Part shown: positions 2,145 through 34,670 of the stretch, one piece after another
How the letters are laid out: every line of letters starts with the position of its first letter
Numbering within the stretch: the first letter of the stretch is position 1
Assembly (NCBI GenBank): GCA_963745235.1
Contig: CAVUXE010000011.1
Span: 44,719 to 108,718, forward strand
DNA: 64,000 nt
DNA from: an uncultured Spirochaetota bacterium
GTDB lineage: Bacteria > Spirochaetota > Spirochaetia > SZUA-6 > Fen-1364
Reading direction: 5' to 3'
Position numbers and translations under genes: made by a program
The notes under the pieces: model-generated
What the model saw: the letters and a program-made list of their open reading frames with translations, nothing else
What the model was told of the DNA's origin: nothing
Databases searched by the model: none

Positions 2145-3716
2145 ACGCATTGCCTCATCAGAATTCTAACCCAACGAGCTGATTTGCCTCATCGAAAAAT
2201 CTAACCCTAAAAAATCCCCTCCGCGACCTGACATGATGGCGCCGCGGGAGGAAAAGGGTGGGATTAACGATGAGGGAGAAGAAATCCATTACTCGCGTGA
2301 CGGCTCGCAGATACCGGAATGCGAACAAGAAAGCCAAGCAGAAAATCCTGGACGAGCTTACTCGAACGACTGGCTACAACCGCAAGTATGCCATCCACAT
2401 GCTTACCAATTGGGGCAAAGAAAAGTTTCACAGGGTGGAGGGGAGGTCGATCAAGTTTACCGTCGGCCAGCCCACAAAGCGCAAGAAACGCCTCGGCAGG
2501 CGTATCTATGATGAGAGGGTCCGAGAGGCTGTTCGCAAGCTCTGGCAGTTGTTTGACTACATGTGTGGCAAGCGCCTGGCGGTCATCATACGGCTGAACA
2601 TCGCGATGTTGCACCGGGAACCGGATCTGGGCATCGATGAGGCGGTGAAGCAGAAGCTCCTGAAGATCAGCCCTGCCACCATCGACCGCATGCTGACCAC
2701 AGAGCGCAAGAAACTGGTGATCAAGGGCCGCAGCCACACCCGTGGCGGCACGCTGCTCAAGCACCAGATTCCCATCCGCACCTTCTATGATTGGGATGAG
2801 CGCAAGCCGGGCTTTTTCGAAGCCGATACTGTGGCCCACGACGGGGGAAATAGTTCGGGGGAATGCTGCTTTACGCTGAACGCCACCGACGTTTTCTCTG
2901 GGTGGGTGGAGCTGCGCTCATTGCCCAATCGGGCGCACCGGTGGGTCAAAGACGAAGCGGAAGGGATTCGTGCACAGCTGCCTTTTGCGCTTAAAGGTTG
3001 GGATTCCGATAACGGAGGAGAGTTTATCAACCACCAGCTTTTGAACTGGGCCAACGAGCATCACATCAGCTTCACCCGTGCTCGCTCCTATCGCAAGAAT
3101 GACAACTGTTTCGTCGAGCAGAAAAACGATCTGGCCGTTCGACGCACGGTGGGCTACTACCGCTTCGAGACGCAGGCCGAGTATGAGGGGCTCAAAGAGG
3201 TGTACAAACACCTGTGCCCGCTGTTGAACTTTTATTACCCCTCGGTGAGAATCATCGAGAAGACTCGAATCGGGGCACGAGTGAAGAAGAAATACGATGC
3301 ACCCAAACCGCCTTACCAGCGGATGTTGGAATCCCCCGATGTTGAGGAGGAGGTGAAGAAAGAGCTCCGACGACGTGCCCAGAAGCTACACATCGTGAAG
3401 CAGAAACGTTTGGTGGATCAAGCTGTGGCGCGGTTGATGCGGATACACGATGAGAAAAACCAAGGGCACTTGTTGCTGGAGTAGGGCTCGCCGGGCACGT
3501 GCATCGACCAGACGGCCGCGTGTGATCGAAAACGTACGTCGTGGCGGGCCAAGGGCGCATTTCCCGAGGCGAGGTGGTATCCAGGTACCCCTCGAAATGG
3601 CTGGACTTCGCGGGCAAGACGCACTTTTGAGTGGGGCCTCGGAGCCAGCTCCAGGGTTAGAATTTTGGATGAGGCATTCAAAGAACTACGGTTAGAATTT
3701 TTGGTGAGGCAATACG
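2145..3716 (+). mobile_element. Insertion sequence (~1.57 kb) with rve-type DDE transposase; family not assigned
   Basis: Terminal IRs CGCATTGCCTCATCAGAATTCTAACC and CGTATTGCCTCACCAAAAATTCTAACC (reverse complement), each with a second internal copy. GAGC direct repeat at 2141-2144 and 3717-3720. Interrupts an epimerase gene. Confidence 0.9.
2258..3484 (+). CDS. DDE transposase (integrase core domain)
   Basis: Intact 408-aa ORF with N-terminal HTH. Catalytic motifs FFEADTVAH, WDSDNGGEF and NDNCFVEQKN. Confidence 0.92.
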   Translation: MGLTMREKKSITRVTARRYRNANKKAKQKILDELTRTTGYNRKYAIHMLTNWGKEKFHRVEGRSIKFTVGQPTKRKKRLGRRIYDERVREAVRKLWQLFDYMCGKRLAVIIRLNIAMLHREPDLGIDEAVKQKLLKISPATIDRMLTTERKKLVIKGRSHTRGGTLLKHQIPIRTFYDWDERKPGFFEADTVAHDGGNSSGECCFTLNATDVFSGWVELRSLPNRAHRWVKDEAEGIRAQLPFALKGWDSDNGGEFINHQLLNWANEHHISFTRARSYRKNDNCFVEQKNDLAVRRTVGYYRFETQAEYEGLKEVYKHLCPLLNFYYPSVRIIEKTRIGARVKKKYDAPKPPYQRMLESPDVEEEVKKELRRRAQKLHIVKQKRLVDQAVARLMRIHDEKNQGHLLLE

Positions 3717-4285: not shown

Positions 4286-4978
4286 TCATCCTCCCGGCTG
4301 CAGCGACTTCACCCACTTCACGGTGCTGCCGATATCCTCGCTATTGAACAGGAGGGAGCCCATGACGATGAGTTGGGCTCCGGCCGCGCGCAAGCCTGGC
4401 ACAGTACTGGCCCTGATGCCGCCATCTGACTCCACGCGCACGGTCCGTTCTAAGCCGTGCTCTTTGACGAGGGCGCGGACCGCGCGAACCCGGGGAGCGG
4501 CAAGGGGGGAAAGGTTCTTTCCCTTCACTCCCATCGGAGTGCCCATGAGAACCACGATGTTGATGGACGGCAAGCTCGGAACGAGGGACTCCAACGGCAC
4601 GTCCAGACCCAGAGCCAATCCGGCAGCCAGCTCGCGGCGTGCCGTTCGCTCCAGAGCAGCCGGGACACGCGAGCCGTTTTCGCAGTGGACCGTTATCATG
4701 TCCGCGCCCGCGTCAGCAAAGTCGTCGACCAGAGACAACGGGTTCTCCGTCATAAGGTGGACATGGAACGGTTTCTTCGTGAGAGGCCGCAGCGCGGCAA
4801 CCAGATCGGGGAAGAACACGAGGCCCGGGACGAAATGCGCGTCACAGACGTCGACATGGTAAAGATCCACATGGGCATCCACACGCTCGATTTCTGCACC
4901 CAGCCGGGTGAAGTCCGCTGACCACAGCGACGCTTCGGCTAGGAGGTCATTGCCAGGGAACCGGTTCCAGAAATCCAT
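4286..4978 (-). CDS. rpe: Ribulose-phosphate 3-epimerase family protein (Rpe/AlsE-like)
   Basis: SLWSADF, YHVDVCDAHFVP, HVHLM, ITVHCE, VESDGGI and IVMGS motifs. Confidence 0.88.
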   Translation of the reverse strand: MDFWNRFPGNDLLAEASLWSADFTRLGAEIERVDAHVDLYHVDVCDAHFVPGLVFFPDLVAALRPLTKKPFHVHLMTENPLSLVDDFADAGADMITVHCENGSRVPAALERTARRELAAGLALGLDVPLESLVPSLPSINIVVLMGTPMGVKGKNLSPLAAPRVRAVRALVKEHGLERTVRVESDGGIRASTVPGLRAAGAQLIVMGSLLFNSEDIGSTVKWVKSLQPGG

Positions 4979-4987: not shown

Positions 4988-5399
4988 CTATGACTCCCTG
5001 ACCAGGTACTTCTTCGGGAACTCGGCGCCCACGACGTACTTGAACAGGGGGTCGCGGATCATCTGGTAGACGTTCACGCGAAAGCTCGGGTTCACGGTGA
5101 GCAGGAGGTAGGCGTCGGTTGGCGTTATGCCGTACTCATTCACCATCCACCTCCATGCGGTAGGTGATATGGAAAGAAAATTCTATACGCTCGCATCGAT
5201 GGATTAACGCGACAATTCAAGGTGCCCTCCGTCTTGACCTCATCCTCCGTAGGGAGATCCTTTTCGGACTCGATCTTTCCCCCCCCGTGTTGTCCCGGGT
5301 CTCCACCATGAACTCCTCTTCCTGGCCGACCCTGACAACGGGCGGTTTCGTCCAGTCGAACGTGTAGCTGAGCCGAGCTTCCCATGAGATTCGCTTCAT
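4988..5399 (-). pseudogene. Acetamidase/formamidase family protein with a large internal deletion
   Basis: N-terminus YTFDWTKPPVVRVGQEEEFMVETRD lies about 100 nt from the C-terminus WMVNEYGITPTDAYLLLTV...YVVGAEFPKKYL. The middle of the protein is missing. Confidence 0.7.
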
Positions 5400-5420
5400 C
5401 TGATCGCCTCCACGCTGATT

Positions 5421-5448
5421 ATTCTATAGGTAATCCGGGCCTTGTCAA
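5421..5448 (-). promoter_or_regulatory. Sigma70-type promoter for the leftward operon
   Basis: TTGACA-16 bp-TAGAAT on the minus strand, upstream of the GGAGG RBS. Confidence 0.6.
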
Positions 5449-5790
5449 AGCGCGGTTACTGCTGGGCTTCGGATGTCAGCGACAGGCAGCAGGATCTCGA
5501 ACTCGCAGCCTGATGGCGAACGGTTCTTTGCCTTTGTTGACGATGCCTATCTCACCTAGAGTCAAAGAACTGATCTCCTGCCTCGAAGCGTTTGGGAAAG
5601 CGTGCGCTGCGGGGATATCCGAGGCGCGGCAACTGCGTAGATCTCGCCGGCGTGTTTTCCGAAATTCATGATCAGTTCGCTCTTGCTTTCGAGCGGTTAA
5701 TGGCTCAGACGATTCGGTCTTTGCTATTACGGCTGCTGCGGAGCCGCTCACTTGACAGATGTCGTTCGCCGTGAGAGTATGTGGTTGTTA

Positions 5791-5810
5791 AACTATGTAA
5801 TTACATAGTT
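5791..5810. promoter_or_regulatory. Perfect 20-bp palindrome, probable GntR operator
   Basis: AACTATGTAATTACATAGTT lies downstream of TTGACA (5752-5757) and upstream of the GntR operon. Confidence 0.6.
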
Positions 5811-5855
5811 ACATTATGGTAACCCGATAATCGGGGAAGGAGTACTCGCGGAAAC

Positions 5856-6101
5856 ATGGCGCTCGGCATGGAGCTCGATACCATTACGGCTGTTGTTTTG
5901 GGAGGCACAAGCATTGGGGGAGGCAGGGGGACGATCGCCGGCACGGTCATTTCGGTGCTCATGATAGGACTTTTAAGGAACGGCATGTACGCGAAGAATA
6001 TTTCGCCGGAAATCATGAAGATAGTCATAGGAGGACTTCTCATTGTGAGTCTTCTTGTGCCACGGGTCCTTGGTGGTGTAGGGAAAGCTGAGGGAAAATG
6101 A
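5856..6101 (+). pseudogene. C-terminal fragment of a sugar ABC permease (RbsC-like)
   Basis: GMELDTITAVVLGGTSIGGGRGTIAGT motif; only 81 aa remain. Confidence 0.8.
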
Positions 6102-6862
6102 AGGAAGAACTGTTTGTCCAGGTGGACAAGAACCGGGCAATCCCATTTTACTACCAAGTGAGCGAGTTTATCCAAGAACTCGTTCGGAAGGGCGATATCC
6201 AACCGGGCGAGCAAATGCTCCCCGAGGAAGTGCTCGCCGAGCGGTTCGGTGTTAGTAGACCGACGATCAACAAGGCAATAGCGATCCTTGTTCGTAAATC
6301 AGTGCTTTCGAGAGAACGAGGGAGGGGCACCTTCGTGTATTCGGGAGAGGTACGGCTCACACTCATGCAGGAACTAGCGAGCCTTCACGAGGCGATGCAG
6401 AAAAATAATATCAAATTTAGGACCGAAGTGCTGAAGCTGGAGCGGCTCAGGGCGGACAAGCAAATCGCCGGCCTGCTGGACTTGAAGGAAGGCGCCGCGG
6501 TCTTCTATCTGAAGCGTCTCCGCTACGTTGAGGACGAGCCGTTTCTCATTTCCAAATCCTATCTACCGTTCACCATTTTCCCGGGGTTTGAAGAGCACGA
6601 CTTCATTACGAACTCACTCTATGCAGTTATAGAAAGCCAATACGAAATTCCTGTGATTAAGACTGAACGCTTTGCGCGGGCCGTCAAGGCCCTCGATGAG
6701 GAAGCGCATTTATTCAGGATACCGCTTGGTGATCCGTTGATCCAGCTCGAAGGAGTTGCGCTCACTTTGAAGGACCTAAAAGTCGAATACTTCAACACGA
6801 AGATCCGTGGAGACCGGGGTGTGCTAAGCACCACCTTGTTAAGGAAGCGGAGGCCAGCGTGA
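6098..6862 (+). CDS. GntR/HutC-family transcriptional regulator (UTRA domain)
   Basis: PFYYQV...LPEEVLAERFGVSRPTINKA...RGRGTFV winged HTH plus a UTRA-like C-terminus. Confidence 0.93.
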   Translation: MKEELFVQVDKNRAIPFYYQVSEFIQELVRKGDIQPGEQMLPEEVLAERFGVSRPTINKAIAILVRKSVLSRERGRGTFVYSGEVRLTLMQELASLHEAMQKNNIKFRTEVLKLERLRADKQIAGLLDLKEGAAVFYLKRLRYVEDEPFLISKSYLPFTIFPGFEEHDFITNSLYAVIESQYEIPVIKTERFARAVKALDEEAHLFRIPLGDPLIQLEGVALTLKDLKVEYFNTKIRGDRGVLSTTLLRKRRPA

Positions 6863-6884
6863 AAAGACCCAAGACAGGAGGGGG

Positions 6885-8076
6885 ATGTCAATGGGCGACC
6901 GAATTAGTGCGATCTATGAAATTACGCCGCAGGTAGAATCACCCGAAAGGGCGTTCGATCTCCTGCTCCACGAGATGACGAGCGGCATACAGTATTTCTC
7001 CGGCCCTGACGGGGCAATCATGGACAAAATTGTAAACCATGTCCCGTCAGTTGATCGCAGCGTTATGGGAGAAATCGTCGCGGCAGAGAAAGGAGAAGAT
7101 AGCTCGTACCGCATCACTTTTTCAATTCCTGCTTCCAACCTCAACCCCGAGATGGGGGGAATAACCAATTTGTGGCCGATTGTTGCAGGAGAAGTCTTCA
7201 ATTTCTACTTCATCAGGAAGGCGCGACTGCTGGACCTCAGCCTGCCCGGAATCCTTCCAAGCGCGCTACCTAGGGCCGCGCTGCGGCCTGCAGGGCATGC
7301 GGGAGTTGCTCCATGCCGGCCCTGACCCACTCTTTGGCGCGATAATAAAGCCCAACGTCGGGCTTAATCCTGCGCAAGCTGCAAAGCTTGTGCAAAGTCT
7401 GGCAGATGCAGGATTCGATTTCATCAAGGACGATGAGATTTGCGTGGACCCAGTGCTTTGCCCGCTCCGCGAAAGGGTTTCCCGCGTCGCCGAGGCGCTA
7501 GACGCCTCGGCTGGACGGTCCGGCCGCAAGCCGCTTTACATGTCAAACATCACTGTGGACTTCGCCTCCCTCCACGAAGCGGCGCGAATAGCAGCCGAGT
7601 GTGGTGCCGGGGGATTCATGGTGGATCCGTTCTGCACGGGGATGTCGACGATCGACTTTCTGCGGCGCACCTTCCCTCTGCCGATCTACTGCCACCGGGT
7701 CGGCTATGGGCTCCACAGTTTGGGCCAGACCTACAGCGTGAGCTTCGAGCTGTTCAGCAAACTCTTTAGGTTGTTGGGCGCAGACTTTTCGCACGTGGGG
7801 GGAATCTGGGGGAGCGGGGCAGATGCTAAAATGAAAACCGGACGATATCTGGAAATCCTCAGACGCCGTGTTGCTGGAGCTTTGGACAGGAATGAGACCT
7901 GGCCTGTGGTGAGCGGCATTAGCCTAGAGAATATGGAGGAGTATTATCGCTTCTACGGGGATGACACGCTGTTCCTTGAGCATATCGATATCTACACCGA
8001 CACAGATGCTGCGCGGCGCAAGATCGACGCTCTCAAGCAGCGTGTAGAGGCAGCAAAGACGGGAGCCGGGGCGTGA
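6885..8076 (+). CDS. RuBisCO-like protein (form IV), one frameshift near 7248
   Basis: The two ORFs join as LLDLSLP/ESFQARYLGPRCG. Motifs GAIIKPNVGL, DFIKDDE, CHRVG and GADFSH are present. Confidence 0.88.
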
Positions 8077-8084
8077 ATGGAAAA

Positions 8085-9125
8085 ATGAAAGCGGCGGTAC
8101 TCCACGCTCCGGGGGACGTGCGGTTCGAAGAAGTACCAATCCCGGCGATCGGCCCCGAGGAAGTACTCCTGCGCATAAAAGCGGCGGGTAACTGCGGATC
8201 TGACCTGAAACGGATCATGGTGGAAGGCACTTGGGTGCTGCCATGCATCCCCGGCCATGAGTTTTCGGGAGAAATAGCCGAGGTAGGAGAAGGAGTGGAG
8301 GGGTGGAAGACCGGGGATCGAGTGACGGCCGCACCAATGCTCCCTTGCTTTCGGTGCGAGTGGTGTCTCCAGGGCCAGTACAACCTGTGTGAGAATTATG
8401 ACTACGTCGGTTCACGATCGGACGGAGCTTTCGCCGAGTACCTGAAGATTAGGGCCTTCAACCTTGTGAAGCTCCCCGATGGGGTGAGCGATGAGGCGGC
8501 TGCCATGACGGACCCGGCGGGCGTTGCGCTCCACGCTTTGCGGCGTGCGGGCGGTGTCAGCCCCGGGGAAACCGTCGCGGTGCTCGGTGCCGGACCGATC
8601 GGGATGTTCGCTTGCCAGTGGGCAGCGCTATTGGGCGCGGGGAAAGTAATCGCAACCGATATCCTCGATGAGAAGCTTGAGATTGCCAGTGGTCTGGGTG
8701 TCCCGGTGAGGATCAATTCCAGGCGTGAAGACACGGTGGCCCGGATCATGGAAGAGACGGGCGGCAGGGGAGCTGATCTGCTTATAGAGACCGCGGGCTC
8801 AGTAGAGACCCACAGGCAGGCGCTGCTCGCGGCGCGCAAGCGTGGAAGAATTGTGCATATCGGCAGGGCGTATTCCGACGTGCTACTGACTGATGAGGTG
8901 TTCACGAAGATCTTCCGCCGGGAGCTCGCAGTATTTGGCGCCGTGAATACCAACTTCTCTCCTCACGACAATGAGTGGAAAACCACGGTGGACTACATAG
9001 CATCCGGGAAAATCCGAGCCGAGCCGCTCGTCTCCCACCGCCTGACGATGAGCGCCGTAGGGGAAACCTTCCGCAAGATGTACCGGCGGGAGATGGTTTA
9101 CAATAAGATCATCTTCACTCCGTAA
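8085..9125 (+). CDS. Zn-dependent polyol(-phosphate) dehydrogenase (galactitol-1-P dehydrogenase-like)
   Basis: CGSD, GHEFSG, structural-Zn C-x2-C-x2-C-x7-C motif and GAGPIG Rossmann motif. Confidence 0.92.
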   Translation: MKAAVLHAPGDVRFEEVPIPAIGPEEVLLRIKAAGNCGSDLKRIMVEGTWVLPCIPGHEFSGEIAEVGEGVEGWKTGDRVTAAPMLPCFRCEWCLQGQYNLCENYDYVGSRSDGAFAEYLKIRAFNLVKLPDGVSDEAAAMTDPAGVALHALRRAGGVSPGETVAVLGAGPIGMFACQWAALLGAGKVIATDILDEKLEIASGLGVPVRINSRREDTVARIMEETGGRGADLLIETAGSVETHRQALLAARKRGRIVHIGRAYSDVLLTDEVFTKIFRRELAVFGAVNTNFSPHDNEWKTTVDYIASGKIRAEPLVSHRLTMSAVGETFRKMYRREMVYNKIIFTP

Positions 9126-9141
9126 CGTTGAGAGGTGAATC

Positions 9142-10195
9142 ATGGAGGCCGTGTATTTGAGAGGCGTCGAAGACGCTGTCGTGACGACCGTGCCTGATCC
9201 CTGCATTCCCGGCCAGGGAATTCTGGTTCGGGTGGAGGCGTGCGCCGTGTGCGGCACCGACGTTAAGATGTATCGCCACGGCTATGCCGCGGCGAAGTTT
9301 CCCCTCATTCCCGGACACGAGATCGCGGGTAAGATCGAGCGACTCGAAGGGAACTACCCTAGGACTCTCTGTCGGAATGCGCGTGGCCATTGCGCCGAAC
9401 ATTCCGTGCGGCGTGTGCCAGTATTGCAGGGACGGGCTCCAGACGGCCTGCGATTCCCTTGAGACGATCGGCGTGCACCGCGACGGCGGTTTTGCCGAGC
9501 TCTTAGTCCTCCCCGCGCACGCGGTGACAGCAGGCTGCGTCTTTGCTATCCCAAAAGGGGTTGCAAGCGAGGAGGCGGCGCTTATCGACCCGGCCTCCTG
9601 CGCTGTGAATGCTTGCGAATTGTCCCACGTGAAGCCGGGCGATACTGTTGTTGTCGTTGGCGCTGGTCCCGCCGGATGCCTGTGCGTGGAGGTGAGCAAG
9701 GCCTTTGGTGCGCGCTTCACTATCCTTATCCAGCGCTCGTCTGCACGTCTTGAGCAGGCGCGTTTTACAGGCGCGGGACTTTTCATCGACTCCTCTCGCG
9801 AAGATGCGCTTGCGAAGGTTCGCGAAGCCACCGGGGGCAGGGGGGCTGACGTAGTGATCGTTGCTGCCGGCACGGCCGAAGCTCAAGAGCAGGCTATGCA
9901 GATGGTAGCCAAGAGAGGCAGTGTAAACCTCTTCGGCGGCCTACCCAAGTCGAGCCCGACTATCCGCCTTGATTCAAACCTCGTGCATTACAGGGAAGTT
10001 TCCGTCGTGGGCACCCATGGGAGCTCCAACAGGCACTGCGCAATCGCTCTGGACATGATCGCTGACAGGAGGATAAGGGCCAGCAACTACGTAAGCAGGC
10101 GGTTTGCCCTTAGCGAGTTTCCGTCAGCCCTTGCAGCTGCAGAGAGCAAGACGGGGCTGCGGATGTTCGTCAATCCTGGGCTGGCTGGTCGATGA
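9142..10195 (+). CDS. Zn-dependent sugar-alcohol dehydrogenase (iditol/sorbitol DH-like), frameshift near 9355
   Basis: CGTD and GHEIAG in the first frame; CGVCQYC and GAGPAG in the second frame. Confidence 0.88.
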
Positions 10196-10292
10196 GAGTA
10201 ATCCTGGTCCGCTGCGGCGAGATGGGCCTGAGGAGAGAGGGATTGGGCAAAAAGAAGTCTGCCGGACTTGACGACGAAAGGCGGCTTAGGGA

Positions 10293-11258
10293 ATGACCGA
10301 AATAACCTTAGGAATCAATACCTGCTTCGCGATCGGCCGCTACCCAGAACCGGAAGAATGGATGCGTGTCGTCACGGACGAGCTGGGGCTCTCTCACGTC
10401 CAGTTCTCGTTCGACTTGGTTGACCCTGTCATCGTCGACTGGGATACCGTTGAAAGAAAATGTAGGAAAATTGCTGAGCTTGCTCAGCAGAGAGGGATTC
10501 GCATAGACACGGCCACCACGGGCGAGGTCCCCCATAAATCTAATGCTCTCCTCGATCCTGATCTTGCAGTCAGGCGCTCCTACCTCCGCTGGTACGAAAA
10601 CCTCATACGGGCAAGCAGCATCCTGGGCGCCGAAGGCTCTGGGGTCTATCTCGGAACCCTGAGCAGCAGGGACAACGGGTCCGCCGAGCGGCGCGCGTAC
10701 CTCATCTCCGTTCTCATGGAGGAGATCGAGCACCTCACGGGAATAGCGAAGAGCGAGGGTCAAAAATATTTCATGTGGGAGCCGATGTCTGTCCCCCGGG
10801 AGATCCCCTGCACCATTAGCGAAACGCGAGAGCTCCTCGAGCGGGCAAACCGCAATTCGCAGATACCAGTGTTGCTCTGTTTGGACGTTGGCCACGGTTG
10901 GATCCGTTCCCCTAATCCGAGCGATCGAGACCCGTACGAATGGCTTCGAGAGCTTGCGCACTTGTCTCCCTCTATCCACATGCAGCAGACCGACGGTAAA
11001 GGTAGCCGGCACTGGCCGTTTTCTCCCGAGTTCAACGCTAAAGGTATCATCGCTCCTGAAAAGGTGTTCGCCGCTCTGGAACTATCTGGCGCGGAGCGAA
11101 CGATTATTGTCTTTGAGTACTTCTTCTCTGCGCATGCACTCAGCGAAGACACGGCGATAGCCGACATGCGCACAAGCGTTCAGTACTGGAAGGAAGCTCT
11201 TGGCGGTTCTCATCGCGCAGGTAGAGCGGGGAGGGAAGGGCGGCCGGCAGCGAGGTGA
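10293..11258 (+). CDS. TIM-barrel sugar-phosphate epimerase, resembles EryC (erythrulose-1-P 3-epimerase) family
   Basis: LGINTCFAIGRYPEPEEW...LGLSHVQFSFDL, WEPMSVPRE, LDVGH and HMQQTDG...HWPF. Confidence 0.75.
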   Translation: MTEITLGINTCFAIGRYPEPEEWMRVVTDELGLSHVQFSFDLVDPVIVDWDTVERKCRKIAELAQQRGIRIDTATTGEVPHKSNALLDPDLAVRRSYLRWYENLIRASSILGAEGSGVYLGTLSSRDNGSAERRAYLISVLMEEIEHLTGIAKSEGQKYFMWEPMSVPREIPCTISETRELLERANRNSQIPVLLCLDVGHGWIRSPNPSDRDPYEWLRELAHLSPSIHMQQTDGKGSRHWPFSPEFNAKGIIAPEKVFAALELSGAERTIIVFEYFFSAHALSEDTAIADMRTSVQYWKEALGGSHRAGRAGREGRPAAR

Positions 11259-11265
11259 GACCGCA

Positions 11266-12774
11266 ATGAGCCTGATGGGAATTGACGTGGGAACCACTGG
11301 TTGCAAGGGCGTGGCTTTTGATGAGAGGGGGACAGTTCTTGCATCGGCGTACAGAGAATACCCACTTATCCAGCCCAAGGAAGATTGGGTAGAGCTTGAC
11401 CCGCAACTTATTTGGCAGTTGTTAAAAGAGACTCTACGAGAGGTGAACGCGCAGCTTTCCGCGGACCCGGTGCAAGCAATCGGTGTCTCCTCTCAGGGGG
11501 AGACTGTCACAGCGCTTGACGATCGGGGAAACAATCTCTGCAATTTCATCGTCACTTTCGACAATCGGACTATTGAGCAGGTCTCGTTCTGGGAGAAAGC
11601 ACTCGGCCGCGACGCAGTCTACCGGATAACCGGGATGCCCCTTCATCCCATGTACTCGATCAACAAAATTCTTTGGATAAAAAAAAATCTTCCCGACGTT
11701 TTTGCGCGAGCGCGCAAGTTCACCCTCGTCGAGGACTTCGTCATTTCGCGGCTTTGCGGAGAGTACGGGATCGATTTCTCCCTTGCCGCGCGAAGCATGG
11801 CTTTTGATGTCACGCAGGCAAAGTGGTCTGCGGAGATTCTCGCTGCCGCCGGGGTGGAAGAGCGCTTCCTCTCCCGCGCGGTGCCGTCGGGTACAATCAT
11901 CGGATGCATGCGCCGTGAGCTCAAGGACGAGCTTGGCTTCAAGCGGGAGGTTTCCATTGTCACCGGGGGGCATGATCAGCCCTGCGGTGCCCTCGGAGCC
12001 GGCATCACGGGGGCAGGGATCGCGATGAATGCAACGGGTACAGTTGATGCTATCTGTCCCGTGTTCAGCGACTTACAGTTTTCCCCTCAGATGCTTCAAG
12101 ACAACTATGCGGTCTACCCTTACACGATGCAGGGACTGTATTGCACCATCGGTTTTAACCTTACCGGCGGCCTACTCTTGAAGTGGTACCGGGATACTCT
12201 TTGCGCCGAAGAAGTCCGTTGGGCTAAGAACAAAGGCATGGGCTCGTATGATATGATCCTTTCTCGCATGTCGAGTTCCCCAAAGGATATCTATGTACTG
12301 CCTCATTTTGTTGGGTCGGGCACCCCGCAGCTTGACCCTCTTTCAAAAGGGGCAATCATCGGGTTACGGATCTCCACTACCAAGGAGGATTTGACGCGAA
12401 GTATCATAGACAGCATCAACCTTGAGATGAAAATAAACATCGAGCGAATGCGGGCGAACGCAATCCCTATACGCGCCATCCACGCGGTCGGAGGCGGCGC
12501 CAAATCAGACCTCTGGCTTGCACTTAAGGCGAGCTGTTTTGGGGTGCCTGTCAGCCGACCCAGGACCGAGGAGGCGGTTTCCCTTGGCGGGGCTATCCTT
12601 GCAGGATATGCCACCGGGCGCTTTCAGGGTGTTGCCGAGGGGGCGAAGGCAATGGTTGCCATCCAGGATACATTCGAGCCGCAGGAAAAGCTCGTAGCTT
12701 TGTATGATGAGAAGTTCGCTAAGTTCCGGGAGCTTTATCCAACGCTCTCGCAGCTCAATAGGAGTTTGGAATGA
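11266..12774 (+). CDS. FGGY-family carbohydrate kinase (xylulokinase-like)
   Basis: GIDVGTTGCK, GGHDQ and VGGGAKSDLW motifs. Confidence 0.93.
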   Translation: MSLMGIDVGTTGCKGVAFDERGTVLASAYREYPLIQPKEDWVELDPQLIWQLLKETLREVNAQLSADPVQAIGVSSQGETVTALDDRGNNLCNFIVTFDNRTIEQVSFWEKALGRDAVYRITGMPLHPMYSINKILWIKKNLPDVFARARKFTLVEDFVISRLCGEYGIDFSLAARSMAFDVTQAKWSAEILAAAGVEERFLSRAVPSGTIIGCMRRELKDELGFKREVSIVTGGHDQPCGALGAGITGAGIAMNATGTVDAICPVFSDLQFSPQMLQDNYAVYPYTMQGLYCTIGFNLTGGLLLKWYRDTLCAEEVRWAKNKGMGSYDMILSRMSSSPKDIYVLPHFVGSGTPQLDPLSKGAIIGLRISTTKEDLTRSIIDSINLEMKINIERMRANAIPIRAIHAVGGGAKSDLWLALKASCFGVPVSRPRTEEAVSLGGAILAGYATGRFQGVAEGAKAMVAIQDTFEPQEKLVALYDEKFAKFRELYPTLSQLNRSLE

Positions 12775-13507
12775 GGAAGCCGTCCTTCATCGGACCCATG
12801 CACAGAAGATTCCGCAGACAAATCCGCGACTTGGCGGCGGCGAGCGTTCGTCTTGGGGAGCTGGGTTTCGCGTCCTCCCGCGGGGGCAACCTTTCCTGTC
12901 GTGCGGATGATGGCTGTTTGCTGATTACCCCGACCGGCTTTCGGAAGAAGGAAGTCCGCCCAGAGGACATACTGGTGGTGAGGCCCGACGGAAGCACGTG
13001 GGAAGCACGCCCGGGGCTTAAGCCTTCAAGCGAGGCGCCTGCCCATATGCACATAATGCGTTCCCGTCCGGATGTTCAAGCGATTATCCATGCTCATCCA
13101 CCGGTTTTAACGGGTTTCGCCCTCGCGGGGGTCGATATTCTCTAAAACCCATCCATCCTGAGCTTGTCATCGAGGTCGGCCCCGTGATCAACCTTGACTA
13201 CACCGAACCAACGTCGGAGAAGCTTGCACACCAGTTCGATAGTGTCATACTCAGCGCCAACGCCTTCCTGATGGGAGGGCACGGGGTTATGATCTGCAGC
13301 CCGGTTGGAATCGAAAGGGCACTGGAACTCCTGGAAATGCTTGAGACGATAGCATTTTCGGCATGGGTCGCGATGTCCGTGGGAAAGCCGAAAACGATTC
13401 CCGCCGCTGAGCTAGACGCGTTGGAGCGCATCATGCGCACGCGCAACCTTACTATGCCGGGCGCGTCGGCCGGCTGGAGCCTGCGGAAGCTGTACGGGAC
13501 GAACTGA
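12771..13507 (+). CDS. Class II aldolase/adducin family protein, frameshift near 13143
   Basis: GGNLS, ITPTG, KPSSE, HAHP and, in the second frame, LMGGHG. Confidence 0.85.
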
Positions 13508-13698
13508 ACCGGAGAAGAGGGGAATGAATTTGCTTTGATTAAGGATGACCTGTAAAATGCGAATGGAGAAAAGGTGAGGAAAAGAGTGATTCGACCAGGC
13601 AAGGTTCAAGCGCAGTATTGAGACCATCTTTTGGAATTGTTTAGGTGCGAGTCGTGCGATTAGTGGGGCATTAATACAACGAACAAGGGAGGAAAAAG

Positions 13699-14697
13699 AT
13701 GAGACCTATCAGATTCGCGTCGGGGCTCCATGTCTTTGGAAGTACTGCAGACCGCTATGTCCTCAGCGGTTATAAGCCGCAGGTACCAATATCTGAAATG
13801 ATTCAAGGGGCGGCAAAGGTGAAGGGCTTAAAAGGCGTCGAACTTGTCGAGACGTGGCATATCAATAGCGAAAACGTAGACAAGGTGCTGTCAGAGCTGC
13901 AGGCGTCCGGATTACAACTTACCCTCCTCATGCCCGATCTCTGGGCTTCTGGCAAATGGGGAATGGGAAGCTTTGCTGCAGGGAACGAGAAGACACGCAG
14001 GGATGCTATTGAAACGGTCAAACGCACGATGGACATGGCGGCACGCACAGGCTGTAATTTGATCAATGTGTGGTTGGGGCAGGATGGTTACGATTATCCG
14101 CTCCAAGCCGACTATTTGAAGGCGTGGGACTGGATCGTTGAAGCCTTAAGAGAATGCGCTGATCATAATCCCAAAGTCACAATCGGGATGGAGTATAAAA
14201 TCAAAGAGCCGAGAACCCATTGTTTTATCGGAACAATCGGTAAGCTGCTCTTGCTGATGGACAAGGTGAATCGGAAGAACCTGGGCGTCATTCTAGACAT
14301 AGGACATGCTCTCGAGGGATATGAAAACATGGCGGAATCCGCCGCGTTGTGCAAGTATTTTGGCGACCGGCTTATCCATCTCCATCTCAACGACAACTGG
14401 CGATCCTGGGACGATGATATGATGGTGGGGTCCATCCACACAATCGAGCTTTTGGAACTCCTGTACTGGCTAGAAAAAATCGACTTCCGGGGGTGGTACT
14501 CGCTGGACATCTTCCCCTACAGAGATGATTCAATCGCCGTAGCCTCAGAGAGCCTGAACTGGATAACGGATCTGCGCAGGGTGATCGATCACATTGGATT
14601 GGACAGAATCGAGAAAGTCATCGCAAGTGGCGACGCTGCCCAGGCATCCCGCTTGGTGAGAGAGGGCATGTTCTCTGTGTCGGAGCATAAGAAATGA
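13699..14697 (+). CDS. Xylose-isomerase-like sugar isomerase
   Basis: WLGQDGYDYP, EYKIKEPRTH, LDIGH, HLNDN...DDDM and LDIFP metal motifs. Confidence 0.85.
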   Translation: MRPIRFASGLHVFGSTADRYVLSGYKPQVPISEMIQGAAKVKGLKGVELVETWHINSENVDKVLSELQASGLQLTLLMPDLWASGKWGMGSFAAGNEKTRRDAIETVKRTMDMAARTGCNLINVWLGQDGYDYPLQADYLKAWDWIVEALRECADHNPKVTIGMEYKIKEPRTHCFIGTIGKLLLLMDKVNRKNLGVILDIGHALEGYENMAESAALCKYFGDRLIHLHLNDNWRSWDDDMMVGSIHTIELLELLYWLEKIDFRGWYSLDIFPYRDDSIAVASESLNWITDLRRVIDHIGLDRIEKVIASGDAAQASRLVREGMFSVSEHKK

Positions 14698-14925
14698 ACT
14701 GTACGCTTGGAAGAAATCGGTCCAAAGCGGGAAGGAGGGATCACCGGTTTTTACCAGGGTGACTTTAGAAAGGGGCTGTGTGAAAGAGCAGAAAGGAGGG
14801 CAATAGTAAGACCATGAGGGTCGCGCTGAAGCGTTACATAAGCGTGACAAGGATTCCAATCACTCGGTTGGTTTGCGGCTGCATCCGCCGACACTGAGTG
14901 CAAGCAAGAACGAGGAGGACGATCG

Positions 14926-15972
14926 ATGGGTAGGATGGTAAGAACGATCCTTCTGGCAGGACTCGTGCTTCTAATTGCATGTGGGGGTGTGTTTGCCAGC
15001 GGGAAGGGAGAAGCGACTAAGACAGCGGCAATCACTATCGGGTACTGCTCGCCAGAACTTGACGCCTTCCAAGCAGGGGTCATGTACAGTGTGATGCACT
15101 ACGCCCAGGCAAAGGGCTGGGCGGTGATTCCGGAAGACGCCAACACAGATCCGCACCTACAGGCGAACCAAGTAGAATACCTGATTTCCCTGGGTGTGAA
15201 GGCGATCGTGGCGGTGCCGTGCGATAGCCAGGCATTCTGCGCTTCAATTGCAAAGGCTCGCCAGGCGAACATACCGGTGTATACGATCGACCGCGCTCCG
15301 ATTGGGTGCAAGGTCAATATGGTCGTCCAAGCCGATAACGAGAAAGGCGGCACTGACTCCGGGACCGAGATCGTGAAGTTCCTGACGCAAAAATACGGAA
15401 GCCCGAAGGGCACTGTGTTGGAGCTGCAGGGAGAGATGGCCGAGAACGTGGCGCAGCTCAGGCACAAAGGCTTTATCGATGTCATGAACCAATATCCCGA
15501 CATTAAGGTCACTTCAAAGACAACCCACTGGGACTCCAACCAGTTCTATCAGGACGCCATGGATGTGGTCGGCTCCCAAGCTATTGATGCGATCTTTCTG
15601 CACTCCGACACCGTAGGCGGCACGCCGGTAACGCAGGCCCTCACCCAGCTCGGCAAGTTGGTTCCCGCGGGCCAGCCCGGGCATATCTACATAGCTGCGA
15701 TCGACGGGTCGCCGAATGGCCTTGACCTCATCCGCAAGGGTTCTCTCGACCAGACCTCCAGCCAGCCAAATCCCGATTTCGGCATTCTCACCGAATATAT
15801 CGACAAAGAGTTCAAAGGCGAGAAGATCGTGGCGGGTCCAGTAGTGAAGGAGGGAGCCCTGTGGTCGCCCGCGAAGATCATTGACTCCGACGTTGGGCCA
15901 ATGCTCGAGCTGGCCACAACGGACGTCACGAAGGCCAATGTCGATGACAAGCGCCTTTGGGGGAACCACTAG
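14926..15972 (+). CDS. Sugar ABC transporter substrate-binding protein
   Basis: Signal peptide; type I periplasmic binding motifs IPVYTIDR, LRHKGF and IDG. Confidence 0.9.
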   Translation: MGRMVRTILLAGLVLLIACGGVFASGKGEATKTAAITIGYCSPELDAFQAGVMYSVMHYAQAKGWAVIPEDANTDPHLQANQVEYLISLGVKAIVAVPCDSQAFCASIAKARQANIPVYTIDRAPIGCKVNMVVQADNEKGGTDSGTEIVKFLTQKYGSPKGTVLELQGEMAENVAQLRHKGFIDVMNQYPDIKVTSKTTHWDSNQFYQDAMDVVGSQAIDAIFLHSDTVGGTPVTQALTQLGKLVPAGQPGHIYIAAIDGSPNGLDLIRKGSLDQTSSQPNPDFGILTEYIDKEFKGEKIVAGPVVKEGALWSPAKIIDSDVGPMLELATTDVTKANVDDKRLWGNH

Positions 15973-16092
15973 AAGCCGGTAAATCGGCAACATGCCGGGG
16001 GCGAGCTGCGATAATCTCTCAGCCCGCCCAGCTTTATGAGATTTGAAGTCCTGCTTCTGTGGTTAATCGGACATGAGGAGGATCGGCAAGCC

Positions 16093-17235
16093 ATGGAAAG
16101 AGATCGTACAACATCCTTTTTTGTTGCAATCATAGACAACCTCATTTGGGTTATCGTTATTGTCGCTTTCGTTGTTTTCTCCCTGCTGTCCAGTCGGTTT
16201 CTTCACTCTTTTCAACCTGGTGAATATCCTGCCGAGGGTGGCTGCGCTTGGTCTCCTGGTCATCGGCCAGTCCTTTACAATGACAACCGCGCACTTCGAC
16301 CTCTCTTCCGAATCGACCCTCGGCTTAACCGCAATGGTGGGGGCGCTGTTTGTCGCCACCACAAACTACGGCGGGCTTGGGATAATGATGCCCCCCGGTT
16401 TCGCCATCGTCTTGATGATTCTACTCGGGTTGCTCATCGGAACCTTAAACGGCTTCATGATTACGAAACTGAGAATGAACAATCTCGTAGCGACGATCGC
16501 CATGCTGATCCTCCTCCGCGGCGTTGTGTGGATCCTTTCCCCAGGAAAGAGCGTGAGCTTTCTCGGGCCCGTGTTCGACTGGATCGGGGGAGGAGTTCTT
16601 TTCACGATTCGGGCAGGCGGCAAGCCTACCGGTGTGCCGGTAAGCTTCTTTTTCGTGCTGGTGGCTTTTGCTTTCGCGCACATCGTGACCCGATACACCC
16701 GATTCGGCCGGCACATGTACGCTATCGGCTCCAACCGTGAAGCCGCGGAGGCCGCGGGCATCCGGACCCAGCGGGTCATTTTCTCGGTATATGTGATTAG
16801 CGGCGCTTGCGCTGGCGATTGCGGGTCTACTTGAAGCCGGGCAGAGGAGACTCTGTCGTAGGCGGGCTCGGCCAAGGTTGGATTTTTCAGGTACAGGCGG
16901 CGGCCATCATCGGAGGGATCAGTCTGTTCGGCGGCAGGGGGAGCATGCTGGGTGCGCTCGGCGGCGTCCTTTTCTGGGGCATTCTGGAGTCCGGTTTGAG
17001 CATCATGCAGGCCAGTCCTTACTCTATCAACGTATTCCGAGGCGGCTTCTGCTTCGTCGCTATGATGCTCGATGCTTTGAAGACCCAATACCTCCGCACT
17101 CTTTCAGCGCACCAGGTTGTTCGCCCGATCGACGATCGGAATAGCGGATTTGAACAACCTGGGGTAGGCGAGAAAAGAGAGAAATCCTTATGGAAACCAC
17201 AGTGCCAGCAACAATTGTCTCACTGCGCGGCGTGA
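16093..17235 (+). CDS. Sugar ABC permease (frameshifted; 3' end approximate)
   Basis: FDLSSES, TRFGRHMYAIGSNREAA and AAAIIGGISLFGGRG spread across three frames. Confidence 0.8.
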
Positions 17236-18722
17236 GCAAGTCCTTTCCAGGCGTAAATGCCCTATCGAATGTGGACCTCGACGTCCACCAGGGCGAGGTG
17301 CATGGTCTCGTAGGAAAAAACGGGGCCGGCAAATCGACACTCGTTCGTGTGCTCATGGGACTGCACGAGCCGGACAGCGGCTCCTTGGAGATAAATGGCC
17401 ACCGCTTCTCTCGCATCACCGCCAGTGAAGCTTTGGCCGCAGGAGTCGCGTACGTTCCCCAGCACGTCAGCATGATGGACAGTCTTGTCGGTGGCCGAGA
17501 ACATTCTTGCGGGAGAGATGCCAGTCGGTGCTTTCAGGTTGGTAGAACTGGAAGAAGGTGTATGCTCAGGCAGCGGACAGACTCGAAAAGCTCGGCCTGG
17601 ACCTGGACGTTCGAAAGAATGTTGAAGGGATTAGCGTCGCCGAGCAAACGATGCTTGCAATAGCGCAGGCGCTCTTCCGCCGGGCGAAACTCATCATTTT
17701 GGATGAGCCGACCGCTTCGCTTCCTCGGGCTGACATCGACCGTCTGTTCACTCTCATCCGTTCGCTCAAGAGCCAGGGAGTTGCAATTGTATTCATTTCG
17801 CACCATTTGGAAGAGGTTTTCGAGATCTGCGACCGGGTGACCGTGCTTCGCGACGGCTAGCCAGATCGGAACCTGGCCTCTCTGCGGAGCTGGACCTGCA
17901 ACGCTGACAAAGGTAATCGTGGGAGAGAATATCCATGAGTATGTAAGAGAGTCAAGGGAAAGAGCGCCGGAAATCTCGCCATGCAGATCAGTGGATTGAC
18001 ACTTAGGGGGTCACTACGAGGACATCTCGCATGGATATCGCCAAAGGCGAGGTTGTCAGCGTTTGTGGGCTGCAGGGCTCGGGAGCCGAGGCGTTGGGCG
18101 AGAGGCTCTTTGGTCTGGAGCCGAGGGGGATCGGAGCGTGTCCGAGTAGACGGCAAGGAGTACACGGCAAGGAATCCCAAGGAGGCCTTTGCCCAGGGAG
18201 TCGCCTTGCTCCCGCAGGATCGGTACCGCTTCGGGATTGTCGGCTCTGCGGCCAATCCGGGAGAACATCACTTATTCCATTCTGGACCAGCTGACAGGAT
18301 TTCTCTCTATCCTTAAATCGGTCAAGGAGCGTCAGTTGGTGAAAGATTTCATCGAGAAGCTAGGTATCGTCACTCCAAGCCAGAACCAAAGCGTAAGGCT
18401 CCTGAGCGGCGGGAACCAGCAAAAAGTGGTTTTTGCCAAACTTGCCTGTACAAGACCAAGCGTGCTTATTCTCCACGATCCCACTCAGGGCATCGACGTG
18501 CGCGCCAAGCTGGACATCTATAGGGTGATCGACGACCTAAGTGCGCAGGGCATTGCGATTCTTATCATTTCGACTGAGGTGCGCGAGCTTGTCGGGGTGT
18601 GCGACCGGATCCTCGTCATGTACGAGGGTCGTATAACCCACGAGTTCAAGAGGGGGGACGCCGATACGACACCGAGCAACATTTTGCTGGCAATTGAGGG
18701 AGGCCGTCATGCGGGACAGTAG
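17190..18722 (+). CDS. Sugar ABC ATP-binding protein (tandem domains, several frameshifts)
   Basis: GKNGAGKST, ILDEPT, LSGGNQQK and PTQGIDV. Confidence 0.85.
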
Positions 18723-19726
18723 GGTCGATTGGGTGAAGCTTATCCTAGACCGATTCCTTTGGTTGGTGATTGTGCTAATCGCCCTCTTTTTTGTGTGGCG
18801 AGCTCCCGGCTTTGCTACCGGAGTGAAACTTCGTCAACCTTCTCCTTCATGCCAGCGTGCTAGGGCTCCTTGTCATCGGACAAAGCATCTGCCTGCTCAG
18901 CGGTAATTTCGACCTCTCCATCGAAGGCAACATTCAACTGGTTGCCGTACTCGCAGGGTGGATGATGGTCCCTGCCGTAGGGTTCGAGGGCGGGGGCGGC
19001 TGGGTGCTCTCACCCTTTATGGTCATTCCAATAGTGCTCGTGATGGGCGGGGCTGATCGGAATGCTCAATGGCCTGATGATCACGCGGCTGGGGATGAAC
19101 AACTTCATTGTGACTCTGCGCAATGCAGCTGGTTCTCGGAGGGATTGCTTTCCTCATTAGTCGAGGGTTTGACATTAACCGCATTCCTGCTTCCTTCTCG
19201 TGGCTAGGCAGCCACGCTTTCGGTCACATCCCAGTCCAGATAATCTTTACCGCTGTGGCCTTCATCGGGTTCCAGCTTTTCCTTGGCGCGTCCCGTTTCG
19301 GCCGTCAGCTCTACGGGGTCGGCGGAAATCGGGACGCGGCCCGCGCCTCCGGTATCGATCCGAGAATCCGTGATCACAAAGGCGTATATCTTGAATGGCA
19401 TGATCGTCGCCATAGCTGCGTGGATGCTTCTCGGTCGCGTCGGTCAGGCCAACACGAGGATCGGGGTCGGAATAACACTGGAAGCGGTGGCCGCTGCAGT
19501 GATCGGTGGGGTTGCGCTCAGCGGCGGCTACGGATCGGTGGGAGGAGCCTTCGGCGGGGTGCTCCTTCTCTCCGTGATCGATAATGGCCTGAACCTGATG
19601 AGCGTGAACGCCTTTTGGATTCAAGGTATCCGAGGCTTCATCATCCTGCTTGCTCTTTTCATCGAAGCACAGAAGTTCCGTTATAAGCCCCGGGTGCATA
19701 TCGATATCGCGACCGGTGCCACATGA
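18709..19726 (+). CDS. Sugar ABC permease (frameshifted)
   Basis: GNFDLSIEG, SRFGRQLYGVGGN and AAAVIGGVALSGG across frames. Confidence 0.8.
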
Positions 19727-22287: not shown

Positions 22288-22578
22288 GAGCGTGTCGACA
22301 AGACCTATGACGCATATGCACAGGCGGATGCGCTGGTCACTATCATGGGCGAGCTCATGGCGGGGCAGCAGGTTCAGGGAGTGCACTTTGTTCCGGGACG
22401 CGTTGCGACTCCAGCGAACATCGAGGACCTGCCGGGTGTTTGGGCACGGGATAATCACGACTGACAAGCGCCCCATGGGGTTGCTGCATTAATGCGGCCG
22501 CGGCTGCCTCGCACTTTAATGAGCAGACACACGTGGGCTGCGATCAAATGGGCGAGCAGGATCAGAGTGGGTCAATTC

Positions 22579-22986
22579 ATGAGAAAGTATCGCGTAGAGC
22601 TGCTGACTTTCTCCGATGGGCGTGGATACCAATACGAGCAACTTCTGCCCATTAACAGGGACTACCAGCGGCGCGTAAAAGAGGCAATCGAGGGAACCGG
22701 GGAAACAACGGTCATCGAAGGGCGAGAGATCATCGGGAACAACGCAACCCCTCGCGTGGAGGCCAGCCGGATCGAGCAAGCTGGCGTTGATGTGGTCATC
22801 TTCAACTACGCTATTTGGTGCTTTCCCCACCTCTCTGCGATCGCAGCTAAGGCTGATTCCTCTCCCGATCCTGCTTTTCTCGAATCTAAACCCCTCGGAG
22901 CTATGCATGGTGGGAATGCTTGTAAGCGCAGGCACTATGGATCAGCTTGTAAGCGCAGAGGAGTTGCTTTCAAACTTCCCCTGTAA
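22579..22986 (+). pseudogene. L-fucose/L-arabinose isomerase family, N-terminal fragment
   Basis: LLTFSDGR...IFNYAIWCFPH...LCMVGML; frameshifted and truncated after about 125 aa. Confidence 0.7.
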
Positions 22987-23112
22987 CCAAATTCACGGAG
23001 TCTACGGAGATTTCAAGGGAAATGATCGCGGTTGGAAAAATCATGAGGATTGAAACCCGGCTTTTCGGCACCGGTCAGAACACATCCCTCGCCGGAATAA
23101 GAGAGGATTCGA

Positions 23113-29120: not shown

Positions 29121-29124
29121 GACT

Positions 29125-31703: not shown

Positions 31704-31777
31704 TTAGGTAGTCTTCCAAAAGAATGCTCCCCTCCCCGGCATGAAGCGCAGGGAGGGGTAGTAGGATCAACTAATTA

Positions 31778-32818: not shown

Positions 32819-33142
32819 AACTCCTTTTCTTCAAACCTAGCAAAAAAGTTGGAACGCTACGATACCTCCTCCCGGGCTTCCCCTAGTTTTGCAGCGTCGA
32901 TCCACCTGCATCTTCGCGTAGGAGGGGACTCCCTGAAGCTGCTTCACGAAAAAGCGTACCTTCCACCCGTAACGTATTTCTCTTTCACCACCGTCCTTGG
33001 GCTTTTTCAAGCTCTTATGCCCCTCTTTTTACAGTCAAAGTTAGAAGGTCAATCACTTACGAAGCGGAAGATCTCGAGGTGGCCGAAGGCTGCTGCAAGA
33101 CCTCCTTTCTAGGAGGCGATGCTAAGCCCGCTCCTCCTGTTA

Positions 33143-33260: not shown

Positions 33261-33289
33261 ACCGCCATCACTTTGTTCTTGCACATATA

Positions 33290-34175: not shown

Positions 34176-34194
34176 CTGATTTCTAATGCAATGT

Positions 34195-34580: not shown

Positions 34581-34585
34581 CATGA

Positions 34586-34612: not shown

Positions 34613-34670
34613 AAGTTGTACTAACTGAAATACCGAACTCACCATGAGCACACCTGCGCTGGCATCAAGT

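Follow-up and report, generated by a model that had tools for sequence, protein, structure and literature searches.

In a 64,000-nucleotide stretch of DNA from an uncultured Spirochaetota bacterium (GenBank assembly GCA_963745235.1, contig CAVUXE010000011.1, positions 44,719 to 108,718 of the forward strand; hereafter the window), seven genes on the + strand at 6098–13507 form an operon around a RuBisCO-like protein (RLP). Judged by profile scores and phylogeny, this RLP belongs to a distinct clade outside every characterised clade tested. Across related loci, the RLP gene and the genes for two zinc-dependent dehydrogenases behind it, ADH1 and ADH2, make up an invariant trio. The genes have not come together by accident, and lineages alternate between two kinase types that are not homologous. 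The operon probably breaks down a sugar alcohol or a rare sugar. RLP-centred sugar operons as such are known; the novelty here lies in the clade of the RLP, in its altered active site and in the genes that accompany it.

The RLP gene (6885–8076, +) encodes about 394 amino acids (aa) and is read in two frames in this assembly, 6885–c.7247 and c.7246–8076. An intact counterpart, P0001, is a 394-aa RLP 96% identical to that of the window. With 112 bits for PF00016 in its C-terminal part (cut-off 30), the protein belongs to the RuBisCO large-subunit superfamily. An AlphaFold2 (AF2) model of P0001 (pLDDT 84, pTM 0.84) showed the two-domain large-subunit fold, and in a Foldseek search with this model the best match was 3nwr (TM 0.78, 29% identity), all listed top matches being RuBisCO or RLP. 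In a word-indexed search, identity stayed at 50% or above for about 98 relatives, almost all of them metagenomic, and then fell to 37%. An exhaustive search of 50%-identity representatives recovered 1454 proteins at E ≤ 1e-3 and 60 at E ≤ 1e-30; the clade collapsed to one full-length representative, P0088 (52% identity), the next being P0121 at 38%. Outside the clade, all others among the matches listed were at most 41% identical, over partial alignments.

None of the curated RLP families accommodated the protein. OiaX (NF042437) scored best, its model giving the C-terminal part 118 bits where 700 are required; the MtnW models TIGR03332 and NF007095 gave 92 and 106 bits (cut-offs 514 and 409), and the form III model gave 111 bits (cut-off 497). 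An NCBIfam scan at E ≤ 1e-90, which left out short fragments and six long proteins, covered 119 proteins, namely P0001, four named relatives and 114 of the 150 listed representatives. None of the 119 reached an equivalog cut-off, and P0001, P0088 and P0121 had no match at that threshold; 25 were OiaX-like (306–524 bits, cut-off 700), nine form III-like and two MtnW-like. In a FastTree phylogeny of 130 rows, the 15 clade rows were monophyletic with a support of 100 and a stem length of 0.62, nested (support 97) in a 28-row group of unlabelled representatives that was separate both from the form III-like group and from the one that contained the OiaX-like as well as the MtnW-like rows. The solved RLPs 1tel, 2qyg, 3qfw, 4nas, 2oej and 3nwr all scored at most 165 bits against P0001, 3nwr being the best at 165; these scores bear indirectly on how the clade relates to the form IV clades reportedly named by Tabita et al. 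in 2007 (IV-Photo, NonPhoto, YkrW, DeepYkrW, GOS, AMC). Among the sister rows, P0188 had no PDB match at E ≤ 1e-40, and P0121 matched form III RuBisCOs in the PDB for the most part, along with the RLPs 3nwr and 2qyg. The expectation of the initial annotation that the RLP would not fall in a characterised clade was thus borne out for all those tested, by profile scores and by a tree built without the characterised enzymes. No paper on this clade or gene set was found in the literature searched, and the clade may appear in the network figures of key RLP papers; RLPs of unknown function from Spirochaetes have been mentioned in passing (PMC7325909).

An alignment served to compare the active site of 23 members of the clade with that of form III-like, OiaX-like, MtnW-like and sister rows. 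Residues are given in spinach RuBisCO numbering. E60, K175, K201, D203, E204, H294, R295 and H327 were kept in all 23 members, including the invariant KDDE motif that holds the carbamylated lysine and the metal ligands (K201, D203, E204). N123 was replaced by E and K177 by N in 23/23, T65 by I, W66 by M and H298 by Y; K334 was a lysine in just 12 of the 23, G381 was deleted, and the glycine cradle at G403–405 no longer consisted of glycines, H/I/D taking their place. The full set of ribulose 1,5-bisphosphate-binding and carboxylation residues of bona fide RuBisCOs of forms I–III (N123, K177, K334, G381, G403, G404) is therefore not present in the clade. The 14 OiaX-like rows mostly retained N123, T65, K334, G381 and G403/404. 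The clade motifs GxIIKPNVGL and HRxGYG were both found in 3nwr, and the K-P-N motif occurred in five of the 14 OiaX-like rows, in which serine was commoner. The metal and carbamate site thus persists, as do the lysine that enolises and the phosphate site at R295/H327; the second phosphate site is lost. Because the metal and enolisation residues are kept while the second phosphate cradle, P1, is gone, the RLP would carry out enolisation chemistry on a monophosphorylated substrate.

Conservation of the neighbourhood was examined in 17 loci from species-representative genomes, all of them metagenome-assembled genomes (MAGs; 12 Spirochaetota, 3 Aerophobetes and 1 Clostridia), and in 45 clade loci from metagenomes, L064–L066 (25–28% identity) being left out. 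The loci were compared by tblastn with the proteins of the window and of the type B clusters, and neighbours were scanned with Pfam (119 proteins, 14 loci). Once loci whose RLP genes had a nucleotide identity of 97% or higher were merged, 40 groups remained, the window included, and the denominators below are the groups with enough DNA. ADH1 directly followed the RLP in 36/36 groups, and ADH2 came next in 28/29, the exception being the group of L014. A TIM1 orthologue (59–75% identity) was present in 13 of 19 groups. In 12 of 21, a His_Phos_1 gene lay between ADH2 and TIM1; it is present in locus L002 and absent from the window. This 217-aa gene had been considered as an aldolase, which was rejected when Pfam gave His_Phos_1. 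In type A loci, the RLP was immediately preceded by a GntR orthologue (63–96% identity). The order in L002, GntR-RLP-ADH1-ADH2-(His phosphatase)-TIM1-FGGY-aldolase, was the same as in the window, with 61–84% protein identity. The seven-gene, tightly coupled operon described in the initial annotation was thus present in full and recurred in another genome; of its genes, only those for the RLP, ADH1 and ADH2 were invariant across the loci.

The kinase was counted in those 16 groups whose DNA extended over 2.7 kb or more on the upstream side and 4 kb or more on the downstream side. An FGGY kinase orthologue (47–74% identity) was found in five, and a pair of UPF0261 and PEP-hydrolase-like genes, usually with a formyltransferase-like gene, in seven; the two never occurred together (0/16). 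In other lineages, the UPF0261 pair thus takes the place of the FGGY kinase named in the initial annotation. As a caveat to this alternation, distant FGGY paralogues (24–25% identity) were seen near two type B clusters (L015, L084). The trio that alternates with the FGGY kinase lies directly upstream of the RLP in L007, L012, L015, L017 and others, and consists of a formyltransferase-like gene (Fmt/ArnA-like, below cut-offs), a PEP-hydrolase-like TIM barrel (PF09370) and UPF0261. The class II aldolase-family gene was limited to two of 12 groups, the window and the group of L002; because of this count, the aldol cleavage that the initial annotation had placed in the route is not part of a conserved one.

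Several loci had arrangements of their own. L002 and L014 are two paralogous RLP clusters in the same genome (G002), with RLPs 72% and 66% identical to P0001; in L014 the RLP and ADH1 stand behind a CUT2 ATP-binding cassette (ABC) importer and no ADH2 is present, making it the sole exception to the RLP-ADH1-ADH2 trio. In the Aerophobetes MAG locus L010, the RLP is closely preceded on its own strand by genes for a bicupin and for the alpha and beta subunits of a thiamine pyrophosphate (TPP)-dependent E1 dehydrogenase (5665–8595). In the L005, L013 and L017 sub-type, a phospho-furanose-lactonase-like phosphotriesterase-family (PTE) gene, an unassigned Rossmann protein, a major facilitator superfamily (MFS) transporter, a LysR regulator and a sulfatase flank the RLP core, a hint of a different entry substrate; in L005 and L013, the lactonase-like gene and the Rossmann protein take the place of the kinase.

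The clade is known only from uncultured bacteria, mostly Spirochaetota MAGs, and its holders come from peat, soil and sediment. In a sample of 41 genomes of the order to which the window belongs, the RLP was present in three: its own genome, 2/20 of the same genus and 0/20 of the others. Among 401 genomes sampled across the phylum, 11 had a TIM1 orthologue; ten of the 11 belong to one family, and nine of those ten also carried the RLP. When clusters were sought in which TIM1 is accompanied by a different enzyme in place of the RLP, one TIM1 without the RLP turned up, in G129, the tenth genome of that family; no clear substitute was present there, and TIM1 is surrounded by an Rpe-like gene, genes of glycolysis and further TIM barrels. 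The gene set is found in other genomes, as the initial annotation had supposed it should be.

The first gene of the operon (6098–6862, +) encodes a GntR-family regulator with a UTRA effector domain of the HutC/PhnF type (Pfam UTRA 107 bits, GntR 56 bits). ADH1 (8073–9125, +) is a zinc-dependent medium-chain dehydrogenase/reductase (MDR) with ADH_N and ADH_zinc_N domains, closest to galactitol-1-phosphate 5-dehydrogenase (NF007642 GatD, 265 bits against a cut-off of 550; PDB 4a2c, 220 bits). A phosphorylated polyol is suggested as its substrate, since GatD is both its best solved and its best curated relative. ADH2 (9142–10195, +), also a zinc-dependent MDR dehydrogenase, is threonine/sorbitol/inosose dehydrogenase-like and is split near 9357–9360, with Pfam matches on both pieces; its intact orthologue in L002 scored 181 bits with IolM and 175 bits with Tdh, both below cut-off. 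Both dehydrogenases touched the glucose-dehydrogenase C-terminal Pfam model at about its cut-off.

TIM1 (10293–11258, +) is a xylose-isomerase-like TIM barrel (AP_endonuc_2 47 bits), putatively of EryC-like, tetrulose-4-phosphate racemase type. The label EryC-like in the initial annotation agrees with its best solved relative, 4k3z, matched over the full length with 146 bits (E 1e-41); no NCBIfam family matched, and there is no curated EryC model that would set a threshold. The title of 4k3z, 'D-erythrulose 4-phosphate dehydrogenase', is the old annotation of EryC, which is now classed as a tetrulose-4-phosphate racemase. The FGGY-family sugar kinase (11266–12774, +; FGGY_N 228 bits, FGGY_C 115 bits) reached 311 bits with the XylB model TIGR01312 (cut-off 380), and its PDB matches were generic. 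The class II aldolase/adducin-family protein (12771–13507, +; Aldolase_II 95 bits on the N part) is split at 13143. Its intact L002 orthologue gave 131 bits with Aldolase_II and all its NCBIfam matches were below cut-off; matches of the aldolase-family protein to PDB 6voq and 6btd were 60–63 bits, and aldolase, epimerase, dehydratase and decarboxylase models matched it about equally weakly.

Gene overlaps of four bases occur at 8073–8076 and 12771–12774, and the other gaps are 16–97 bases. The operon extends past 13507 to about 19584 with a second xylose-isomerase-like TIM barrel, a binding protein and ABC permease and ATPase genes. TIM2 (13699–14697, +; AP_endonuc_2 111 bits), a probable sugar isomerase or epimerase, scored 189 bits with PDB 3ktc, and its L002 orthologue, 94% identical, adjoins the binding-protein gene. 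The periplasmic sugar-binding protein of a CUT2 (ribose-type) ABC importer (14926–15972, +; Peripla_BP_4 139 bits) has an L002 orthologue with 85% identity; it gave no clue to the ligand, because its best PDB matches were generic ribose-binding-type proteins at 92 bits or less. The permease and ATPase genes of the same importer (16036–19584, +) are fragmented, with BPD_transp_2 and ABC_tran in separate partial pieces. A promoter and terminator scan of 5000–16200 gave counts at chance level and was uninformative, and no RNA data set was among those listed as containing the stretch.

We favour, with moderate confidence, a working GntR-controlled catabolic route for sugar or polyol phosphates in which the RLP would enolise and isomerise a monophosphorylated keto intermediate. 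The CUT2 ABC importer would bring the compound in and the FGGY kinase would phosphorylate it once. The two zinc dehydrogenases would then oxidise secondary hydroxyls to a keto (or diketo) sugar monophosphate whose phospho-CH2-C(=O)-CH(OH)- head would resemble that of ribulose 1,5-bisphosphate (RuBP). At the carbamylated lysine-Mg2+ site of the RLP, this head would be enolised and the carbonyl shifted, the EryC-like TIM barrel would invert the neighbouring stereocentre, and the product would enter the pentose-phosphate or glycolytic pool; in the lineage of the window, the class II aldolase-family enzyme may cleave or rearrange it first. We infer the class of substrate, the order of the steps and the type of reaction from the gene content. 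The route is consistent with the GntR/UTRA regulator and the sugar ABC importer that flank the genes, with the nearness of ADH1 to a polyol-phosphate dehydrogenase and with that of TIM1 to 4k3z. By analogy with erythritol catabolism, a C4 or C5 polyol may be the substrate, the RLP standing in place of an EryH-type isomerase, an idea that we hold weakly.

A number of observations weigh against this route. The nearest curated family, OiaX, is a decarboxylase, and 3nwr shares the K-P-N motif of the clade; on both counts decarboxylation is as compatible with the sequence as isomerisation. A simple polyol-to-ketose route leaves the need for two co-conserved dehydrogenases unexplained. The histidine phosphatase gene of the relatives hints at a kinase ... 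phosphatase logic, and the phospho-furanose-lactonase-like gene of some loci points to acid sugars. Four of the 16 well-covered groups (L005, L013, L006, L014) have neither kinase, and G129 carries TIM1 without the RLP. FastTree is a quick tree, and it contained OiaX-like, MtnW-like and form III-like rows and not the characterised RLPs themselves.

An acid-sugar or lactone route, in which a phosphorylated 3-keto acid sugar would be decarboxylated (or transcarboxylated) by the RLP in the manner of OiaX/OiaT to a ketose phosphate one carbon shorter, draws on the OiaX match and on the two motifs shared with 3nwr, as well as on the near-cut-off matches of both dehydrogenases to the glucose-dehydrogenase model and the lactonase-like PTE gene upstream in L005-, L013- and L017-type loci. 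We regard it as unlikely. The OiaX score of 118 bits lies far under the cut-off and P0001 lacked an NCBIfam match at E ≤ 1e-90, the tree puts the clade outside the OiaX-like group, and the clade differs from the 14 OiaX-like rows at N123, T65, G381 and G403/404, with K334 variable. Moreover, no DUF1537 kinase or ApnO-type partner was found in any Pfam-scanned locus, and the lactonase is confined to a minority of loci and is not in the window. Still more improbable is a paralogue of methionine salvage, where a kinase and two oxidations would yield a 2,3-diketo-1-phosphate that the RLP tautomerises, compare MtnW, and the histidine phosphatase dephosphorylates, compare MtnX, to an acireductone-type product. 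The phosphatase-family gene behind the RLP in 12/21 loci and the kinase-then-phosphatase logic fit it, the N part of the window's aldolase-family protein scored best with MtnB dehydratase models (63–64 bits), and MtnW with MtnX is a described precedent (PMC6302742). The MtnW models, however, reached 92–106 bits against cut-offs of 409–514, the window is without a phosphatase, and no MtnA, MtnK or MtnD-type genes were found in the Pfam-scanned loci. An oxygen-dependent acireductone fate would also be unlikely if the Spirochaetota holders from peat, soil and sediment are anaerobes, as we assume. The absence of the usual partners claimed in the initial annotation was confirmed by Pfam scans of 12 and 25 window proteins and 119 neighbour proteins, in which no DUF1537 kinase, ApnO-type or methionine-salvage partner was detected.

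The RLP, ADH2 and aldolase-family genes are each split over two frames, in every case by a single-base indel, and the initial annotation had rightly called for a repaired RLP. The frames were checked by aligning contigs of four public metagenome runs (X1–X4) to the stretch. One base at 7245 was omitted in X1 and X3, restoring the RLP frame in 2/2 covering runs; one base was omitted at 9357 (X4) or 9360 (X1, X3), restoring ADH2 in 3/3; and one base was inserted at 13143 in X1, X2 and X3, restoring the aldolase-family gene in 3/3. The contigs of X2 and X4 were otherwise identical to the window, and those of X1 and X3 represented strains about 96% alike. Outside the breaks, the gene pieces aligned end to end with intact orthologues, and the L019 RLP, 97% identical to that of the window, is in a single frame. 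In TIM1, X1 and X3 insert one base behind 11240, and the C-terminal tail of the window protein after about 11201 is unreliable. Other window genes are also multi-frame, namely the ABC permease and ATPase pieces at 16036–19584 and overlapping same-strand ORF pairs at 43271–46920, and single-base indels seem to be frequent all through the assembly. Since every covering run restored the frame, intact orthologues exist and other window genes are split, the three breaks are most likely errors of the assembly consensus and not pseudogenes, the operon being intact in the population. That the frameshifts are real and the operon a non-functional relic here is very improbable, even with three of seven genes out of frame, an integrase gene 2.6 kb upstream and a patchy RLP in relatives (3/41 genomes). 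The indels are of single bases only and were restored in each covering independent run, including contigs otherwise identical to the window, the pieces match intact orthologues end to end, and the further split genes (ABC transporter, overlapping ORF pairs) fit an error-prone consensus. The two frame corrections from X2 and X4, otherwise identical to the window, it should be added, rest on single contigs with a depth below 5, which weakens the case for a working route.

Among known systems, OiaX/OiaT are the RLPs of the D-apionate pathway, which Carter et al. reportedly described in 2018. They resemble the present case in placing an RLP inside a sugar catabolic operon with a kinase and a dehydrogenase, and OiaX shares K201, D203, E204, H294 and R295 with the clade. 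The clade differs from OiaX in having E at N123 and in the loss of G381 and the G403/404 phosphate cradle, and its partners are an FGGY or UPF0261 kinase and two MDR dehydrogenases instead of a DUF1537 kinase (OiaK) and ApnO. The RLP of Rhodospirillum rubrum, said by Imker et al. in 2008 to be a 5-methylthio-D-ribulose-1-phosphate isomerase, offers a mechanistic model for the isomerisation proposed here, as a ketose 1-phosphate head is enolised and the carbonyl migrates; the likeness is one of mechanism, and the context there is sulfur salvage and not a polyol or sugar operon. In Bacillus methionine salvage, MtnW and MtnX likewise place an RLP and then a phosphatase after a kinase step, and most relatives have the RLP together with His_Phos_1, whereas the operon loci lack MtnA/K/B/D partners and the window has no phosphatase. 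The erythritol pathway, EryA-EryB-EryC-EryH-EryI, has the kinase, dehydrogenase, tetrulose-phosphate racemase and isomerase logic proposed here, with EryC as the tetrulose-4-phosphate racemase (PMC11508834). Unlike that pathway, the window operon and the 14 scanned loci contain no EryB-type flavoprotein and no EryH/EryI (TpiA-/RpiB-type) isomerase, and two zinc dehydrogenases and the RLP stand where EryB and the isomerases would be. Escherichia coli GatD (PDB 4a2c) is matched by ADH1 as its best solved and best curated relative (220 and 265 bits), whereas ADH1 remains under the equivalog cut-off of 550 and lacks a phosphotransferase system (PTS) or tagatose pathway context.

Further genes lie on either side of the operon. 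An ORF at 2258–3484 (+), 2.6 kb upstream, matches the integrase core (rve) weakly, without reaching the Pfam cut-off, and is possibly part of an insertion element. A ribulose-phosphate 3-epimerase-family paralogue at 4286–4978 (−), 1.1 kb upstream and divergent from the operon, scored 159 bits against the rpe equivalog cut-off of 213; it may share metabolism with the operon, because a similar gene adjoins the RLP-less TIM1 of G129 (L083, 9770–10489). Beyond the downstream end of the ABC importer genes, the sugar island may continue at 22492–23979 (+) with an ORF that resembles the N domain of fucose isomerase and with a third xylose-isomerase-like TIM barrel. A separate cluster at 25157–35705 (−), which probably serves to take up and salvage nucleosides, encodes two nucleoside hydrolases, an M20 peptidase, a GATase1-like protein and a PnrA-like binding protein with an ABC transporter.

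The known RLP reactions are few, comprising enolase, isomerase, decarboxylase and oxygenase activities as summarised in a recent review (PMC10176493, Chem Rev 2023). Each newly assigned RLP has brought a new pathway to light and contributed to ideas about the origin of RuBisCO chemistry. The context of the present clade is testable, given the invariant dehydrogenase pair, the interchangeable kinases, the binding protein and the intact orthologues. As a tentative and rather doubtful extension of the route favoured above, the clade may carry out a reaction new to the superfamily on a monophosphorylated keto-polyol made by the dehydrogenases, in a widespread, unrecognised polyol or rare-sugar pathway of uncultured anaerobic Spirochaetota and Aerophobetes of peat, soil and sediments, with the sister UPF0261 and PEP-hydrolase-like pair as the first carbohydrate kinase of its family, displacing FGGY. 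A single activity has been demonstrated for UPF0261, the ATP-dependent phosphorylation carried out by MarK (PMC12624787); if the extension is true, this poorly understood kinase family would have a second, non-aromatic role. The holders of the clade are abundant uncultured organisms that degrade carbon in peat and sediments.

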